A DNA stretch of 39,669 nt. Origin: an uncultured Methanosarcinales archaeon (GTDB lineage Archaea; Nanobdellota; Nanobdellia; Woesearchaeales; SKGA01). Where the stretch lies: contig CAZCGV010000001.1 of assembly GCA_964498515.1 (NCBI GenBank), positions 1 through 39,669 of the forward strand, given 5' to 3'. Shown piece by piece: positions 33,690 to 39,669 of this stretch. Below the pieces are notes generated by a model. That model searched no databases and was not told the DNA's origin. It was given only the letters and a program-made list of their open reading frames with translations. Positions within the stretch are counted from its first letter, which is position 1. Every line of letters starts with the position of its first letter. The position numbers were made by a program, and so were the translations under genes.

Positions 33690-35939
33690 TTACTTTGTAG
33701 TTTTAGAATAGTCTAAATTAAGAATTCTTAAAATTTCATCGGCTTTTTTCTCACCCAATTTATCTATTTTCATCAATTGTTCTTTATTCGACTGAAGAAA
33801 AGATTTTATTGTTTTGAAATGATCCATTATTTTTTTTGCTAGAGCAGGTCCAATAGTTGGAAAAGAAGATACAATATATTCTTGAAGTTCTGCATCCTCT
33901 AATGGTTTGGCGGTATGAAATGTGAATGTATTAGTTTTATTTTCTTGTTCTTTTTTTGCGAAAGCAATTAATAACCTCGCAGATTCGATATAATTTTTAG
34001 TTCTAAATACAGGTATTTTGTATGATAATCCTATTGTTGCCAACATTCCGTCAATCGCAGAAGGATCCACATTTCTAATTTTGTATATGTCTTCTTCTCC
34101 CTCTATGAGTAATATAGGTTTTGAATATTGTGTTATTGATTTTAATTGAACCAATAAGCGACCATCAATAATAGAATCGACAAAATCTTTTACATTTTTG
34201 AATTCAACAACAACATCACTAGAGATTAAAAAATCGCCGACCGATAATTGTTTTAATTTCAAATCAACATTTTCTGTGAGTAAACGTTTAACTAAATCTG
34301 AACCTTTTTCTCTGTGATCAACATACATTGTTAGTTTTTGGTGTGGTTTTGTGAATGAATGTAAGGATTTTTGAGGGGAGTTTTGTGGAATGATTGAGAT
34401 GTCTGTTAAAACTTTAAACATAGTTTTTTCTTTGTGATGTGAAGCCCACCTATATGCTTCATCTCGCGTTCCTTTAGATATTAAGATAGTTACGTTTCCT
34501 TTTGAATGTCTTCCAGTTCGACCCCTTCGTTGTACTGAACGAATCGCACTAGGTATTGGCTCATAAAAGAAAACATGATTTACAGAAGGGATGTCTAAAC
34601 CTTCTTCTGCAACACTTGTTGCAATTAAAACTTGAAATTGGTTTTTTGTGAAATTATTAAGTATTTCTTTTTGTTGCTTTTGTGAAAAACCGACACCATT
34701 CTTTTTAGATTGACCAAAAAAAATATTTGAAGAACATATATTATTTAATTCTTCTTTTAGTTTTGAAGCAGTATCTCTGAATTGCGTGAATATTATTATT
34801 TTGGATTGAGGATTTTCTTCTAACAATTGTTTGAGTTTAGTTTTTAAAAAAATTATTTTTGGGTGAATTTCATTATTTGAGATCGCATTTCTTATTGTAG
34901 CTAAAGATGAAACAAAATTAACATCTTTAACTAAATTTTGTATGGATTTGGCTTTAGATATTCTGCTTTTTGAGAATATTCCTGACATATATTGATTTGC
35001 TGCGAAAAGAGATTGACTTTCCAATAATTCTAAAGAATGATTTAATTTAATTAATTCAGCTAAAACACTCATAGAAATTAATTTAGTGTGATCTATGTTT
35101 CCTTGCGCAATAGATTGTTGTATTTCTCGTTGAGCTTTTAAAATATCTAAATTTGAATTGAAAGATGTTTTTTTAAATCCCATCTCAGCCAATTTATTTT
35201 TTCGAAGTGTTACGCATTTATTCAGATAAGCGATGGCTTTATTTATTTCAGGAGTTAAATAAATTTCTTCCCAAATTAAATCAGTTATTTGTGTATATTT
35301 TTGTACATCTTCATCTTTTGAGGATTTAAATTCAACATTGGATATATGTAAGTTTTTACATATTTGTTCCACCTCTTCTTTTTGTGAACCAGGGGATGCG
35401 GAAAGAGCTAGAATTAAAGGTTCTTTTTGGGTTTCCATATATTTTTGTGCTAAAAAAACATATGCGTAATTTCCACTCGCTCTATGTGCTTCATCAAAAA
35501 TAACTAAAGACACATCATCGAAATTAAAATTCCTTGATATGACGTCATTTTCTATAGTTTGGGGGGTTGAAAAAATAAATTTAGTATTTTGATATAGTTG
35601 TTTTCTTTTTTCAGGAGATATTGTTCCAGTAAATAAATTAAAATCTGTTTCAGGGAATAAAAATTGTTTTTTGAAAGAATTTAGTTGTTGTTCGGCTAAA
35701 GGTTTTGTAGGTGCTAGAAATAAAATTTTGCTTTTTGGAAAAAGAAGTAATCGTTTAGCCGCTAATAACATAGCTATTGCTGTTTTGCCCAATCCTGTAG
35801 GTAGAACAACCAATGTGTTTTGGGTTTGAGAATGTTCATATAAGTCTAATTGATATTTTCGAGGGTTAAAAGATTTTAGCATAAACTTAAACTTATTTTT
35901 AAGTTTATAAATTTTTAGGTGAGTTGACCAGTGTGGCAA
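33690..35939 (-). CDS. hef: Hef-type helicase-nuclease (SF2 helicase + XPF/ERCC4 nuclease + (HhH)2)
   Basis: Helicase motifs are VVLPTGLGKTAIA, VIFDEAHRA, SASPG, TSVAEEGLDIP and QRRGRTGR. The nuclease has VDHREKGS...LSVGDFLIS...VVEFKNVKDFVDSIIDGRL (ERK motif reads EFK). C-terminal HhH is FPTIGPALAKKI...IDKLGEKKA. Start is at 35939 or the ATG at 35882. Confidence 0.85.
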   Translation of the reverse strand: MPHWSTHLKIYKLKNKFKFMLKSFNPRKYQLDLYEHSQTQNTLVVLPTGLGKTAIAMLLAAKRLLLFPKSKILFLAPTKPLAEQQLNSFKKQFLFPETDFNLFTGTISPEKRKQLYQNTKFIFSTPQTIENDVISRNFNFDDVSLVIFDEAHRASGNYAYVFLAQKYMETQKEPLILALSASPGSQKEEVEQICKNLHISNVEFKSSKDEDVQKYTQITDLIWEEIYLTPEINKAIAYLNKCVTLRKNKLAEMGFKKTSFNSNLDILKAQREIQQSIAQGNIDHTKLISMSVLAELIKLNHSLELLESQSLFAANQYMSGIFSKSRISKAKSIQNLVKDVNFVSSLATIRNAISNNEIHPKIIFLKTKLKQLLEENPQSKIIIFTQFRDTASKLKEELNNICSSNIFFGQSKKNGVGFSQKQQKEILNNFTKNQFQVLIATSVAEEGLDIPSVNHVFFYEPIPSAIRSVQRRGRTGRHSKGNVTILISKGTRDEAYRWASHHKEKTMFKVLTDISIIPQNSPQKSLHSFTKPHQKLTMYVDHREKGSDLVKRLLTENVDLKLKQLSVGDFLISSDVVVEFKNVKDFVDSIIDGRLLVQLKSITQYSKPILLIEGEEDIYKIRNVDPSAIDGMLATIGLSYKIPVFRTKNYIESARLLIAFAKKEQENKTNTFTFHTAKPLEDAELQEYIVSSFPTIGPALAKKIMDHFKTIKSFLQSNKEQLMKIDKLGEKKADEILRILNLDYSKTTK

Positions 35940-36620
35940 TCATAATATTTTTAAAAATCCAGCTTTAATTTCATATATTTCACCCATAGAAATTAGTAAA
36001 GTTATGGTTTTTTGAATATCTTGACCATAAAAATCAATTATTTGTTGTGTTGAACAACCATCGCCTGAATCATTTTTTTTTATAAACGCAATTAAATTAT
36101 CAGGAGTTATTTCTTTTTCATCATAATTCTCTATTGAAGGTACTTCAAATTCAATTACATTTGGAGTTTCAATATATTGTGATTCTTCTTCAATCAAATC
36201 AAATTCTTGGTGATTTAGATTTTCAAATGTATCTAAATAAGATTTTCGAAATTCGAACCATTTTTTATTTGAATGTATTTGGTTTTTGTTGAGTATTTCA
36301 CTAACTAAACACAACGAGTTTTCATATTCTCTTATTCTCGCAATAACTAAAATAGAGTCACTAACATTTAAATTATTTTTTTGAATTTCATCCGAAAAAC
36401 AATTAACAGTTATCGTTGCAGTACCATCATCTAATAAAAATTTTGTAGGAGATTCTATTTTAACAACCAACCCTATTGTGTTTAAACGAGAAATTTTACC
36501 AAATTTAGAATCGACGTAGTTAGGATTCCACCCTTCTTGAATAACATATTTTCCTGAGATTAAATATTTTAATGGAATCTTTTTTGCAACTTCTCGTTTA
36601 AATTTATTTTTATTTTCCAT
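35940..36620 (-). CDS. RPA32/Stn1-like protein: OB fold plus C-terminal winged helix
   Basis: OB signature ISRLNTIGLVVKIESPTKFLLDDGTATITVNCF...SDSILVIARIREYENSLCLVSEIL. The C-terminus GCSTQQIIDFYGQDIQKTITLLISMGEIYEIKAGFLKI resembles the RPA32C/Stn1 wH (G-x-IY motif). 5 nt after mcm and abutting hef. Confidence 0.6.
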   Translation of the reverse strand: MENKNKFKREVAKKIPLKYLISGKYVIQEGWNPNYVDSKFGKISRLNTIGLVVKIESPTKFLLDDGTATITVNCFSDEIQKNNLNVSDSILVIARIREYENSLCLVSEILNKNQIHSNKKWFEFRKSYLDTFENLNHQEFDLIEEESQYIETPNVIEFEVPSIENYDEKEITPDNLIAFIKKNDSGDGCSTQQIIDFYGQDIQKTITLLISMGEIYEIKAGFLKIL

Positions 36621-36625
36621 TTAAA

Positions 36626-38668
36626 TCACAATCTAGATATGAAATCTTTTTTAGGACGATAAATGTCCCCACTTCTACTTAATTTTTCAATAGTTTCTTC
36701 TATTTTAGACAACTCTATTCCCTTAGCTTCACATTCTTTTATAACATCCGCTAATGGAAGTATTTTTTTCATAGTTATATTCTCTAAATTGATTAAAACT
36801 TCTTTGACAATGGCGATATGACTTCTTTGGCTTGCAGTTATTCCTGTTGTAATTCGATCTATATCTAATTTTCCAGTTTCAGGATCCAACATGATTTGAC
36901 CTAACGAATAATGCAATAAATTTATTGCTCTTTTAGCATCTTCTTTATTTGCAACTTGAGATAATCTTGCTTTTGCACATGCTTCGGTTAAACGAATTAA
37001 TGCCTCTAATTGACGAGCTGTAATTGGAACGGATTTTATTCCACCTGTATCGCTACCGGAATTTCTTATTTTAACATAATATTTTTCTATTTCTTCGAGA
37101 GCATCATTAGTTAGTTTAGGAAAAACATTTTTCTTCGCGTATGCAATATATTTTTTTAATAAATTTGTATCAATATCCACATTTTTTTCCGTTCGGGTAC
37201 TGTCTTGATGTAAATTTAAAATAAATTTTGCGATTTGAGTATCTTTTTCTCGATCTGGAACATCTCTAACAGGAAACATTAAATCAAAACGAGACATTAA
37301 TGCAGGAGGTAATTCAATTTGTTTTCCTAGAACCTCATATGGATCAAATCTTCCGTATTTAGGGTTAGCTGCTGCAAGTACGGTTGTTTGACATCTTAAA
37401 GTTGCTTGTATGTTCGCTTTACTAATAGTTACGGTTTGTTGTTCTAACGCTTCGTGCATCGCAGAACGATCTTCAGTCGTCATTTTATCTAACTCATCAA
37501 TGCAAACACAACCATTATTTGCTAGAACCAAGGCTCCTGCTTCTAATGCCCATCCTTTCAAAAAATCATCTTTTATAACTGCTGCAGTCAATCCTGCACC
37601 AGATGCCCCTTTTCCAGAAACAAATCTTGATTTAGGAGCTATTACGGAGATTCTTTTTAATAACTGACTTTTTGCAGCACCAGGATCCCCGACCAATAAA
37701 ATGTGTATATCTCCTCTTGTTTTTATTCCATCACTTCTTGGTTTTTGGATGCCTCCAAATTGTTGTAATAATAGTGCTTCTTTTATTTTTTCATAACCAT
37801 AAATTGATGGAGCTAGGTTTGTAACTAAATCTTTAATTAAGGTTGGTTTTTGAGATAATTGAATTATTTTTTCTTCTTCTTCAGGCGTTATAATTACAGC
37901 TCCAAAGTCTTCTTGTAAAGGTTCAACATGATTTCCATCCAATATTAAATCAAATTCAACAGATTTGCCTCCACTTGAGAGCGAAATAGGTATTTCAGAA
38001 ACCACGCCAACCAATCTAATTTGGCTGCCCGGATTTGTTTTTTTCTCACCTATGGGGCTAACTAAATCGTGTTGAAGCAAAACTTTGAAACGCTTTGCTT
38101 GTTCTCCACCATCTAAATTTTCAGTAGGTTCTTCTAAAACTATTTTTTGTATATCTATTAATTCTTTATCTAATAATTTGAATCCTCCTTTTCTACCACA
38201 ACCACATTGGGAGGGTTCTCTGAATTTTTCATCAACTTGTATTATATTCATTATATTTCCACAAGAAGGACATTCAAATTTTGCAGAAATGGCTTTAGGT
38301 CTTACATCTCCCTTTTGACGTATAACTCCGTCCACTTGTATGAGTTTACCTATATGTTTACTTCGAATATTTCTTATAGATACTTTTTGCGCTAAAGGAA
38401 TATTTTTGAATCGTACAAAAAATTCTTTTTGTTTTTTATCTTCATGTAGATCTAATCTTTCAATAGATAAGCTTGCAGTTTTAAAACATTCTTCAGGATA
38501 ATCTAATACTTTTTGCGCTAATTCAGGATTGAAAACCGCTAAATCTTGAAAATCAACTATAATGTAATTTTCACCTCTTTGTAAAGCGGAAATTAAATTC
38601 TCATAATAGAATTTCTCGAAAAAATTTTGAAATATTTTTAATTGCTCCCCCACATCCATTATTTGCAC
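36626..38668 (-). CDS. mcm: minichromosome maintenance (MCM) replicative helicase
   Basis: Zinc motif CPSCGN...CGCGRKG, Walker A GDPGAAKSQLLK, Walker B CVCIDELDKM, arginine finger SRFDL, and a C-terminal wH. 680 aa with no intein-sized insert. Confidence 0.95.
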   Translation of the reverse strand: MQIMDVGEQLKIFQNFFEKFYYENLISALQRGENYIIVDFQDLAVFNPELAQKVLDYPEECFKTASLSIERLDLHEDKKQKEFFVRFKNIPLAQKVSIRNIRSKHIGKLIQVDGVIRQKGDVRPKAISAKFECPSCGNIMNIIQVDEKFREPSQCGCGRKGGFKLLDKELIDIQKIVLEEPTENLDGGEQAKRFKVLLQHDLVSPIGEKKTNPGSQIRLVGVVSEIPISLSSGGKSVEFDLILDGNHVEPLQEDFGAVIITPEEEEKIIQLSQKPTLIKDLVTNLAPSIYGYEKIKEALLLQQFGGIQKPRSDGIKTRGDIHILLVGDPGAAKSQLLKRISVIAPKSRFVSGKGASGAGLTAAVIKDDFLKGWALEAGALVLANNGCVCIDELDKMTTEDRSAMHEALEQQTVTISKANIQATLRCQTTVLAAANPKYGRFDPYEVLGKQIELPPALMSRFDLMFPVRDVPDREKDTQIAKFILNLHQDSTRTEKNVDIDTNLLKKYIAYAKKNVFPKLTNDALEEIEKYYVKIRNSGSDTGGIKSVPITARQLEALIRLTEACAKARLSQVANKEDAKRAINLLHYSLGQIMLDPETGKLDIDRITTGITASQRSHIAIVKEVLINLENITMKKILPLADVIKECEAKGIELSKIEETIEKLSRSGDIYRPKKDFISRL

Positions 38669-38766: not shown

Positions 38767-39333
38767 TTATTTCTTTTCTTTAAGAACTTTAATAAGCATG
38801 TCTACTGCCCTATAAACTTCTTCTACAGATTTTGTGCCTGTACAAACAATTTTTCCATTACTAAATAACAAGAATGTTGCTTTTGCAGCAGGTAGTTTAA
38901 ATACTAATCCTGGAAATTGTTCTGGTTCATATTCTGTGTTGTCTAACTTCATAGCTAACGTGTTTAAATTTAAATCCATACCTATATTTCCACTAGCAAC
39001 CATGTTTTGAACATTGATTTCTGGAACAACTTTAATAGTTATGTCTATTTTTTTTAATGTTTCAATAATTTTATTTAATGATTCTCGGACCATTTCCAAA
39101 CTTTTAGCCCCTGTAGAAACAACTTTGCCTGAACTAAATATTAATGCAGATGTTTTTGGTTCTTTGATTCTAATCACTAAACCTGGAAATTGTTCTGGAT
39201 TATATTCGGTGTTAGAAAGATTTGCGGCCATTTTTTCTAATGGAATGTCGTGGTCTAAACTTGTAGAAACAACAATATTAACAATCGTTATATCTAATTC
39301 TTTTTTCAATTGTTCTAAGCTTTTTTCAGCCAT
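38767..39333 (-). CDS. tbp: TATA-box binding protein
   Basis: Two direct repeats: IVNIVVSTSLDHDIPLEKMAANLSNTEYNPEQFPGLVIRIKEPKTSALIFSSGKVVSTGAKS and VQNMVASGNIGMDLNLNTLAMKLDNTEYEPEQFPGLVFKL...FLLFSNGKIVCTGTKS. Confidence 0.95.
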   Translation of the reverse strand: MAEKSLEQLKKELDITIVNIVVSTSLDHDIPLEKMAANLSNTEYNPEQFPGLVIRIKEPKTSALIFSSGKVVSTGAKSLEMVRESLNKIIETLKKIDITIKVVPEINVQNMVASGNIGMDLNLNTLAMKLDNTEYEPEQFPGLVFKLPAAKATFLLFSNGKIVCTGTKSVEEVYRAVDMLIKVLKEKK

Positions 39334-39559
39334 TTTTAAATACCCCCTAAAAAGTTTAAAATATAAATAGTGGTTGAAAAATCAATCACTTAAAAAAAGC
39401 AAAAGTAAGACTTATTTATAAACACTCCTATTTATCATTTAAAAAGATTTATAAATGAAAAGTCTCAAAACAGTTATAAATTAGATGTTATTAATTTCTT
39501 TTGGAACTTAATTTTGTCTTTATTAGAGGGAATATTATTTTAATTATTTTTGAATCATA

Positions 39560-39581
39560 CCCCTTTATTTCCACTGGAAAT
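39560..39581 (-). promoter_or_regulatory. ORB-like element B (CCCC-TTTATTTCCACTGGAAAT; minus strand ATTTCCAGTGGAAATAAAGGGG)
   Basis: Perfect TTCCA-N-TGGAA dyad followed on the minus strand by a G-run. Near-identical to element A at 13909-13930. A lone GTCTCA lies ~95 bp away at 39462-39467. Confidence 0.55.
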
Positions 39582-39669
39582 TGAAAAAAATAAAATATTA
39601 TGGCTTTTCGAAGAGTAAATTGTATTTTGGTAATAATAATATCATGCCTTCTTTATGACCTGCTCCAAC

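Follow-up and report, generated by a model that had tools for sequence, protein, structure and literature searches.

The right-hand end of a 39,669-nt stretch of archaeal DNA (positions 1 to 39,669 of contig CAZCGV010000001.1, assembly GCA_964498515.1; hereafter the window) raises the question of why a sequence resembling an origin recognition box (ORB), the recognition element of the Orc1/Cdc6 initiator proteins, is located in the spacer upstream of the genes for the TATA-binding protein (tbp) and the replicative helicase (mcm). The original prediction, made from the sequence of the window alone, was that this element is a candidate flank of a replication origin. Our comparative analysis favors a different interpretation, to which we assign a probability of roughly 55%: the element is the distal part of a two-box Orc1 module, with both boxes in the same orientation, that sits at a set distance upstream of the TATA boxes serving the tbp-mcm(-OB-hef) unit in the Woesearchaeales (DPANN) and wired to the promoter of the helicase operon. 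The binding of Orc1 to the two boxes and its effect on transcription are predictions from the sequence data.

Origin recognition boxes upstream of tbp and mcm

Read on the minus strand, the flagged element is ATTTCCAGTGGAAATAAAGGGG (CCCCTTTATTTCCACTGGAAAT in the plus-strand text), which contains a perfect TTCCA-G-TGGAA dyad followed by AT-AAA-GGGG, as had been described. The dyad TTCCAGTGGAA is identical in 12 of 13 positions to the mini-ORB of P. abyssi, TTCCAGTGGAACT (quoted in PMC1904270), and includes TTCC and GAA, the conserved cores of the ORBs (PMC1904270). A G-string follows the dyad after a few bases on the 3' side, with no counterpart on the other side, and it is placed in the same way in the relatives. 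In characterized ORBs, the dyad is read by the winged-helix (wH) domain and the G-string or G-track by the AAA+ domain or the initiator-specific motif (ISM) (PMC3936714, PMC9738581), and the genome studied here encodes an Orc1/Cdc6 initiator with a Cdc6_C winged helix. We regard the 22-mer as a true recognition box for Orc1/Cdc6, of the type known from the classical oriC1, to which Orc1 would be expected to bind.

The 12-nt core TTCCAGTGGAAA has a single exact copy in the window, which is also the only one in the entire assembly (811,705 bp, 68 contigs), compared to an expected count of about 0.004 per window as estimated from the base composition. When two mismatches were allowed, the core was not enriched in the window (7 observed versus 6.1 expected), which indicates that the unusual feature is the long exact match rather than the loose look-alikes. 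The full-box pattern GGAAAT[AG][AT][AG]GG[GA]G (GGAAAT-RWR-GGRG) was identified at three sites in the genome versus 0.26 in shuffled sequences, and all three sites are intergenic (39560-39581, 13909-13930 and C31:7790). The genome scan for TCCANNGGAA, a sequence that is not self-complementary, covered both strands. No Rfam families or tRNAs were found to overlap the boxes in the window, on contig C31 or in the right part of C1, the scaffold from which the window is taken.

One explanation for such a site is a chance match, or an RNA hairpin or terminator that belongs to the upstream traB-like gene. The box is located 17 nt past the stop codon of this gene, its dyad could fold into a 5-bp hairpin, and the core is not enriched at two mismatches, all of which would fit this explanation. 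However, the 22-mer has no second exact copy, the box has been conserved between diverging flanks, and it is also found in genomes that have a gene other than traB upstream of it (G027, G024). Furthermore, a T-run able to act as a terminator already precedes the box, and the reversed-pattern controls gave no matches. The conservation and control data exclude this explanation.

Conservation was studied in the tbp-upstream spacers of four genus members (alignment A1) and in the tbp-upstream regions from the order as a whole (alignment A3; 27 genomes, with column statistics for 26). Three conserved islands were observed in the otherwise diverged DNA of A1, namely the full ORB, a second box, and the TATA sequence TTTATAAAT together with CTTTTGCTTTTT. 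The first island reads TTTCCAGTGGAAATAAAGGGGT, TTTCCAGAGGAAATGAAGGGGT, TTTCCAAAGGAAATAAGGGGGT and AGTACATAGGAAATATAGGAGT in the four genomes, and the second is located 72–74 nt nearer tbp in the same orientation (G000: GTTCCAAAAGAAAT). Across the order, at least one box was identified 130–330 nt upstream of tbp in 23 of the 27 genomes and both boxes in 16, and all boxes in these 23 genomes point toward tbp. As a control, the coding remainder of about 400 nt in all tbp-upstream sequences gave a single match at no more than one mismatch. Few upstream columns are invariant or nearly so, and these include the GAAA of the proximal box, the TATA box (T543-A546 and A548 invariant; T547, A549 and A550 nearly invariant), a Shine-Dalgarno-like GGG and the ATG. 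In the genome studied here, the proximal box is a mini-ORB, with a score of 14.9 in a position weight matrix (PWM) built from the relatives only; the orthologous site in more distant relatives is a full ORB with GGGG.

The geometry is likewise preserved. In family f1, 13 of the 15 informative members have a distance of 50–52 nt from the start of the proximal box to a TATA-like box. The distance is 58–59 nt in G018, G020, G021, G026 and G027, which belong to five other families. The distal and proximal boxes are 72–74 nt apart in genus g1 and 84–88 nt apart in most of genus g2 as well as in G022 and G027, with G011 (76 nt) and G020 (55 nt) as outliers. By our own estimate, with 10.5 bp per turn, the two main spacings amount to roughly 7 and 8 turns of the helix, which would place the two boxes on the same face of the DNA. 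From species to species, the module keeps its orientation and its place with respect to the core promoter, as expected for a promoter element. It had been anticipated that the motif could turn out to be a common promoter-associated element; it is indeed tied to a promoter, but to a single one rather than to promoters in general.

The question is then which of its neighbors the module follows. The mcm gene starts 7–110 nt after tbp in essentially every genome of the order, the exception being G027, in which tbp is located on a separate contig with no box upstream. In this genome, the mcm gene (C34:23759) is preceded by the entire module. Both its distal box, TTTCCAGTGGAAATAAGGGGGT, and its proximal box, TTTCCATTTGAAATTAAGGGGGT, 85 nt on, are full ORBs, and a TATA box 58 nt past the proximal ORB is followed by the mcm ATG. 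The gene upstream of the module is unrelated, orc1 is 10 kb away, and the ortholog of the OB-fold protein is also located behind mcm. This arrangement indicates that the module belongs to the mcm transcription unit, with the OB-fold protein and Hef, rather than to tbp or orc1.

A probable replication origin beside orc1

The window represents C1:1-39669 of a 54,909-bp scaffold and is directly followed by a gap of 100 Ns (C1 39670-39769). We consider this gap to be false, because the 55 bases preceding the Ns are repeated exactly after them, and because closure restores an intact open reading frame (ORF) of the TraB/PrgY/GumN family, with a Pfam match that crosses the junction. The merged gene order is that of the uninterrupted contig in the relative G001. 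The merged coordinates used below extend the window numbering and correspond to the C1 coordinate minus 155. Once the gap was closed, orc1/cdc6 was found 2.2 kb to the right of the window end, where the original prediction had suspected it to be.

Among DNA-bound structures, the Orc1 protein has matches in 2QBY_A (E 1e-106) and 2V1U (E 2.5e-98), and it is closely related to the S. solfataricus Orc1-1 and A. pernix ORC1 proteins of such structures. No other Cdc6_C match was obtained in the assembly. A second, divergent Orc1/Cdc6 paralog (27% identity; C26:2800-3852, locus L024) has AAA+ and Cdc6_lid domains; a Cdc6_C winged helix was not detectable in this protein and there is no ORB near its gene. 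Nearly every genome of the order carries such a second Orc1-like paralog. We also observed an ORB-like sequence, GTTCCAAATGAAAT, inside the orc1 coding sequence (merged 41896-41909, codons ~31–35, peptide VPNEMEH), which may be either a coding coincidence or a third origin-side box.

Archaeal origins are defined as a DNA unwinding element (DUE) with flanking ORBs beside orc1/cdc6 (PMC5333045). The 666-bp spacer upstream of orc1 matches this textbook definition and is probably the oriC of the chromosome. It contains an inverted ORB pair, CAGACACACCACTATTTCCTATAGAG (41276-41303) and TTCTCCATAGGAAGTGTTGGTGTGTGTGGG (41655-41685), the arms of which are 81% complementary with 356 nt between them, and both arms are conserved in the four species of the genus (alignment A2). 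The 350–600 bp between the arms are extremely AT-rich and otherwise unalignable, except for a short TTTCTATATTGAAA in all four genus members, and the AT content peaks at 90% at 41401-41500. The same architecture of inverted ORBs and AT-rich DNA upstream of orc1 was found in G024, a member of another family, in which the right arm has the “canonical” form TTCCAATGGAAATGAAGGGGTCAGT. The inverted ORBs at this oriC have an unusual GGTGTGTGTGGG string instead of the plain GGGG.

Exactly at the orc1 spacer, a series of 34 consecutive minus-strand ORFs turns to the plus strand. The cumulative GC skew of the 55-kb contig has a local minimum at about 41 kb, which is consistent with an origin at this site but does not represent independent evidence, since the skew is dominated by the gene strand. 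Of the checks that had been proposed for the contig, its extension thus yielded the expected orc1/cdc6 gene and inverted ORBs around an AT-rich unwinding element, whereas the skew analysis gave the expected position with this reservation.

The flagged box does not itself flank the origin, which sits about 1.7 kb further to the right beside orc1. Two genes (traB-like and trmB-like) are located between the box and the unwinding element, and an immediate adjacency to orc1/cdc6 that is kept in the relatives was not observed, the distance being 2.2 kb in this genome. No inverted ORB partner is present in 39300-39669, where both boxes have the same direction, and it is the orc1 spacer rather than the tbp spacer that contains inverted ORBs bracketing an AT-rich element. 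The tbp spacer is 76–82% AT, which is about the level of other intergenic DNA, as compared to the 90% peak in the orc1 spacer, and it has no marked AT-rich unwinding element. Together with the association of the box with the tbp/mcm promoter, these findings lead us to abandon the interpretation of the box as an origin flank. The lone GTCTCA that had been listed along with it is present at 39462-39467, but we rejected this motif as an origin signal, since its frequency in the window is at chance level (12 observed versus 10.8 expected, with 8 of the 12 clustered at 13.8–14.0 kb) and this copy is not kept in the same-genus relatives G001, G002 and G003 (alignment A1).

The boxes could still serve the origin from a distance, as an accessory ORB cluster of an extended origin in which outlying Orc1 loading sites act together with the oriC core at a distance of 1.7 kb, for example through looping or cooperative assembly. 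A precedent is the dp1 cluster of the Thermococcales (Matsunaga et al., 2007, PMC1904270), which also consists of a full ORB and mini-ORB(s) about 1.5–1.7 kb from the oriC core, adjoins replication genes and is conserved throughout the order (PMC1904270). The region that Cdc6/Orc1 occupies in vivo in Pyrococcus measures 5 kb and includes two ORB clusters about 1.5 kb apart, and the dp1 cluster is bound by Cdc6/Orc1 both in vivo and in vitro (PMC1904270), whereas binding at the tbp spacer is deduced from the sequence. The boxes at 39560-39581 and 39494-39507 are similarly a full ORB and a mini-ORB, located 1.7 kb from the left oriC ORB and oriented like it, with no unwinding element of their own. 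Furthermore, 4 of the 11 best distinct PWM sites in the genome fall within 2.5 kb around orc1, and the linkage of tbp to orc1, which are divergent and about 3 kb apart, is kept in family f1.

However, the Pyrococcus cluster is part of a coding region, on the side of cdc6/dp1, and remains linked to cdc6 (PMC1904270), whereas the module studied here is intergenic, fixed to the nucleotide relative to the tbp-mcm TATA boxes, and follows mcm when synteny is broken. In G018, G024, G021 and G026, the tbp-upstream region is located about 5–13 kb from the orc1 spacer with the box still at the promoter, and in these genomes as well as in G027 the module retains its precise spacing to the TATA-like box of tbp or mcm at such distances. 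Its orientation follows the gene and not the origin, since tbp is transcribed toward the origin in G024 and away from it here, and two genes separate the module from the unwinding element. Across the relatives, the boxes are physically linked not to cdc6/oriC but to tbp-mcm, and in G027 to mcm alone. We therefore consider an accessory role at the origin to be unlikely.

A possible link between the initiator and the helicase operon

We hypothesize that the Orc1-1-type initiator encoded 2.2 kb away binds both boxes upstream of the promoter, and that its occupancy tunes the transcription of the helicase operon, in either direction, to the level or nucleotide state of the initiator. The logic would be similar to that of the DnaA boxes in bacterial promoters, where the origin motif of the initiator is found at fixed promoter positions, as in dnaA autoregulation, nrdAB and others. 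In both cases, replication genes would be coupled to the status of the initiator, but the protein family and the domain of life differ, and the comparison is an analogy only.

In the archaea, gene regulation by Orc1/Cdc6 has been raised in reviews (PMC5333045), and an Orc1 paralog is a promoter-binding regulator in Saccharolobus (PMC9738581). In Saccharolobus islandicus, this protein, Orc1-2, controls DNA-metabolism genes from promoter-upstream motifs, and its DNA damage-responsive element (DDRE), ANTTTC, resembles the AATTTC half of the flagged box (PMC9738581). However, Orc1-2 is not an initiator but a paralog, its motif has 6 nt and its regulon concerns DNA damage (PMC9738581), whereas the site studied here has the form of a full origin-type ORB that is probably read by the initiator itself, with the helicase operon as the presumed target. 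As in the classical oriC1-type systems (Sulfolobus oriC1, Aeropyrum pernix and Pyrococcus), the box has a TTCC...GGAA dyad with a G-string a few bases on, an Orc1-1-type initiator is encoded nearby, and the orc1 spacer of the genome contains inverted copies around an AT-rich element. Unlike the classical ORBs, the boxes upstream of tbp are direct repeats that bracket no unwinding element, are located two genes from the origin and track a promoter.

Could the dyad be recognized by a protein other than the initiator? Palindromes such as TTCCA-N-TGGAA are typical of operators for dimeric winged helix-turn-helix regulators, and the non-initiator Orc1-2 of Saccharolobus binds promoters (PMC9738581). 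Candidates for such a regulator would be the TrmB-like protein, the gene for which is syntenic in family f1, or the C26 Orc1 paralog, since a second Orc1-like paralog is carried across the order. Against this, TrmB operators are not known to be related to the box in sequence, and the C26 paralog is without a detectable Cdc6_C winged helix. Furthermore, the asymmetric G-string is kept on one side only, as for monomeric recognition of the Orc1-1 type. In G024, the unwinding element at orc1 is flanked by this same motif, which also forms origin-type inverted pairs throughout the class. It is therefore very doubtful that the dyad is the operator of another regulator.

Another function outside the origin could be initiator titration, in which high-affinity boxes buffer free Orc1 and restrain re-initiation, as in oriC2D of Haloarcula hispanica (Wu et al., PMC3936714) and datA of E. 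coli. As is proposed for the module, these sites have initiator boxes outside the origin proper, with a regulatory function and no origin activity, and it has been shown genetically that the ORB-rich non-origin region in H. hispanica negatively controls oriC2, likely by titration of Cdc6E (PMC3936714). The distal box is a perfect full ORB near the origin, as might be expected of a titrating site. However, 11 boxes are found within the 722 bp of oriC2D, which is located downstream of cdc6E (PMC3936714), as compared to two boxes in a promoter-locked geometry here, and titration leaves the fixed spacing to the TATA box, the fixed orientation and the association with mcm in G027 unexplained. We find titration improbable as the function of the boxes.

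A more speculative idea is that the tandem boxes represent a helicase-loading station at mcm, where parked Orc1 captures MCM from coupled transcription and translation. The tbp-mcm spacer would then be a second licensing site or dormant origin, with a position selected to keep the synthesis and the loading of the helicase together near oriC. We regard this scenario as highly doubtful.

Several observations weigh against the hypothesis of a promoter-locked regulatory module. A recognizable box is absent from three genomes (G025, G028 and G030), and among four further genomes sampled from the same order, a strict-pattern box near mcm was identified in G085 only, on the tbp-mcm side and 711 nt upstream of mcm. 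Full ORBs are strong binding sites in Pyrococcus, but single mini-ORBs are bound only weakly by Cdc6 (PMC1904270), and the proximal box in the genome studied here has lost its G-string. The boxes start 50–130 nt upstream of the TATA boxes, which is beyond many archaeal activator sites. In most contigs that carry both, tbp-mcm is located at most about 13 kb from orc1 (27 kb in G030), which leaves room for an origin-related role. All relatives are metagenome-assembled genomes (MAGs), and individual cases such as G027 could therefore be affected by misassembly. Finally, no strict-pattern ORB was found beside mcm in the other orders of the class.

At the level of the class, the strict full-box pattern gave 81 matches in 44 of 61 genomes versus none for the reversed control, and these sites form either inverted pairs that face outward or tandems on one strand. 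In other orders, we observed three full ORBs arrayed on the same strand with a spacing of 51–74 nt (G034:C2:7247-7386, G054:C12:52127-52252 and G038:C25:19887-20032).

Our literature search yielded no description of ORBs at or upstream of an mcm promoter, no characterized replication origin from the DPANN archaea, and no paper that informatively joins DPANN, ORB and origin. The locus offers a clean and testable oriC for the Woesearchaeota, just outside the window. As judged from the sequences, the oriC of this woesearchaeon would in itself be routine, and the new aspect would be the use of origin-type initiator boxes as a promoter-locked module. If correct, this would provide direct evidence at the sequence level for an archaeal Orc1/Cdc6 initiator that also regulates the partner acting downstream of it, an idea that has been raised in reviews (PMC5333045) but is so far documented only for the non-initiator paralog Orc1-2. 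An origin-type initiator box would then be hard-wired to the promoter of the helicase operon throughout the order, and kept by mcm when synteny is broken. The findings also call for caution in origin-prediction pipelines that score ORBs, as a perfect ORB beside replication genes need not mark an origin.

Features of the locus and additional ORB-like sites

The features of the locus are listed in Table 1. Oligo-T terminators are used in archaea, and the T-run between the stop codon of the traB-like gene and the distal ORB is the probable terminator of that gene. The tbp promoter contains two or three TTTATAAA boxes about 22–33 nt apart that are conserved in the family (39415-39456 and the orthologous regions of A3), and these repeated boxes may enable TBP to titrate or autoregulate its own gene. 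The co-directional gene block headed by the spacer, which had been estimated at 25 kb, is real but larger than thought: the 34 consecutive minus-strand ORFs of at least 110 aa extend from 8.4 to 41.1 kb, with a TTG-initiated ORF at 14043-14660 as the sole plus-strand exception.

Table 1. Features around the tbp-mcm promoter and the orc1 spacer. Positions beyond 39,669 are merged coordinates.
Feature	Position	Strand	Remarks
Hef helicase/ERCC4 nuclease	33690-35939	minus	behind mcm, with OB-fold protein
OB-fold protein	35940-36620	minus	packed directly behind mcm
mcm (replicative helicase)	36626..38668	minus	Pfam MCM, E 1.1e-90; 98 nt downstream of tbp
tbp (TATA-binding protein)	38767..39333	minus	leading gene of unit; Pfam TBP, E 1.9e-60
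Shine-Dalgarno-like GGGGG	39343..39347	minus	9 nt upstream of tbp ATG; GGG core nearly invariant in A3
CTTTTGCTTTTT	39395..39406	minus	invariant in genus (A1); probably transcription start or leader region
TATA box of tbp promoter, TTTATAAAT	39415..39423	minus	five columns invariant, others nearly so, in 26 genomes
First TATA-like box, TTTATAAAT	39448..39456	minus	begins 51 nt downstream of proximal-box start
Lone GTCTCA	39462..39467	plus	chance occurrence, outside the module
Proximal box (mini-ORB here), GTTCCAAAAGAAAT	39494..39507	minus	same orientation as distal box, 73 nt start-to-start
Distal full ORB (Orc1/Cdc6 box), ATTTCCAGTGGAAATAAAGGGG	39560..39581	minus	flagged element; dyad TTCCAGTGGAA and G-string GGGG
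T-run, ATTTTATTTTTTTC on minus strand	39584..39597	minus	between traB-like stop and distal ORB; probable terminator
traB-like (TraB/PrgY/GumN family)	39598-40287	minus	3' end (39598..39669) in window; Pfam TraB_PrgY_gumN, E 5.9e-21
trmB-like	40327-41139	minus	
Spacer upstream of orc1, 666 bp	41140-41805		C1 41295-41960; locus L025
orc1/cdc6	41806-43038	plus	Pfam Cdc6_lid and Cdc6_C
PolD DP1	43040-44551	plus	
PolD DP2	46632-50219	minus	

The look-alike at 13909-13930 is located upstream of a small ORF and radA, and its orthologs account for two of the matches in the relatives (G002:C5 and G005:C3). Conservation of this ORB and of the GAGAC arrays that flank it extends through family f1 but not to the other families of the order (alignment A4), which suggests that the association with mcm is older and broader. 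The notion of a broader “Orc1 regulon” that includes radA is thus only partly supported. In the same region, the small-ORF/radA operon has an invariant CACTGGACA, often doubled as CACTGGACACTGGACA, about 8 nt upstream of its TATATAAA in 27 of 27 genomes (window ~13740-13760, minus strand; A4 columns 885–915), and this sequence looks like the site of a regulator.

A third full ORB-like site, CTGCAGTGGAAATGAAGGGGT (C31:7790-7811, locus L028), is located in a GC-richer divergent spacer of 230 nt between an ORF for a 146-aa Cys-rich protein and an ORF of at least 451 aa; there is no Rfam match, and a similar site is present at G002:C21:9184. High-scoring PWM sites at C38:6866, C30:2262, C17:4291 and C26:2422 fall inside ORFs, for example in a RelE-like gene, and were treated as coincidences. 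In three genomes, the MCM matches are split within a single open frame of about 1130 aa (G026:C4:16630-20025, G086:C2:42996-46361 and G037:C9:6381-9692), which suggests that these are intein-containing mcm genes.

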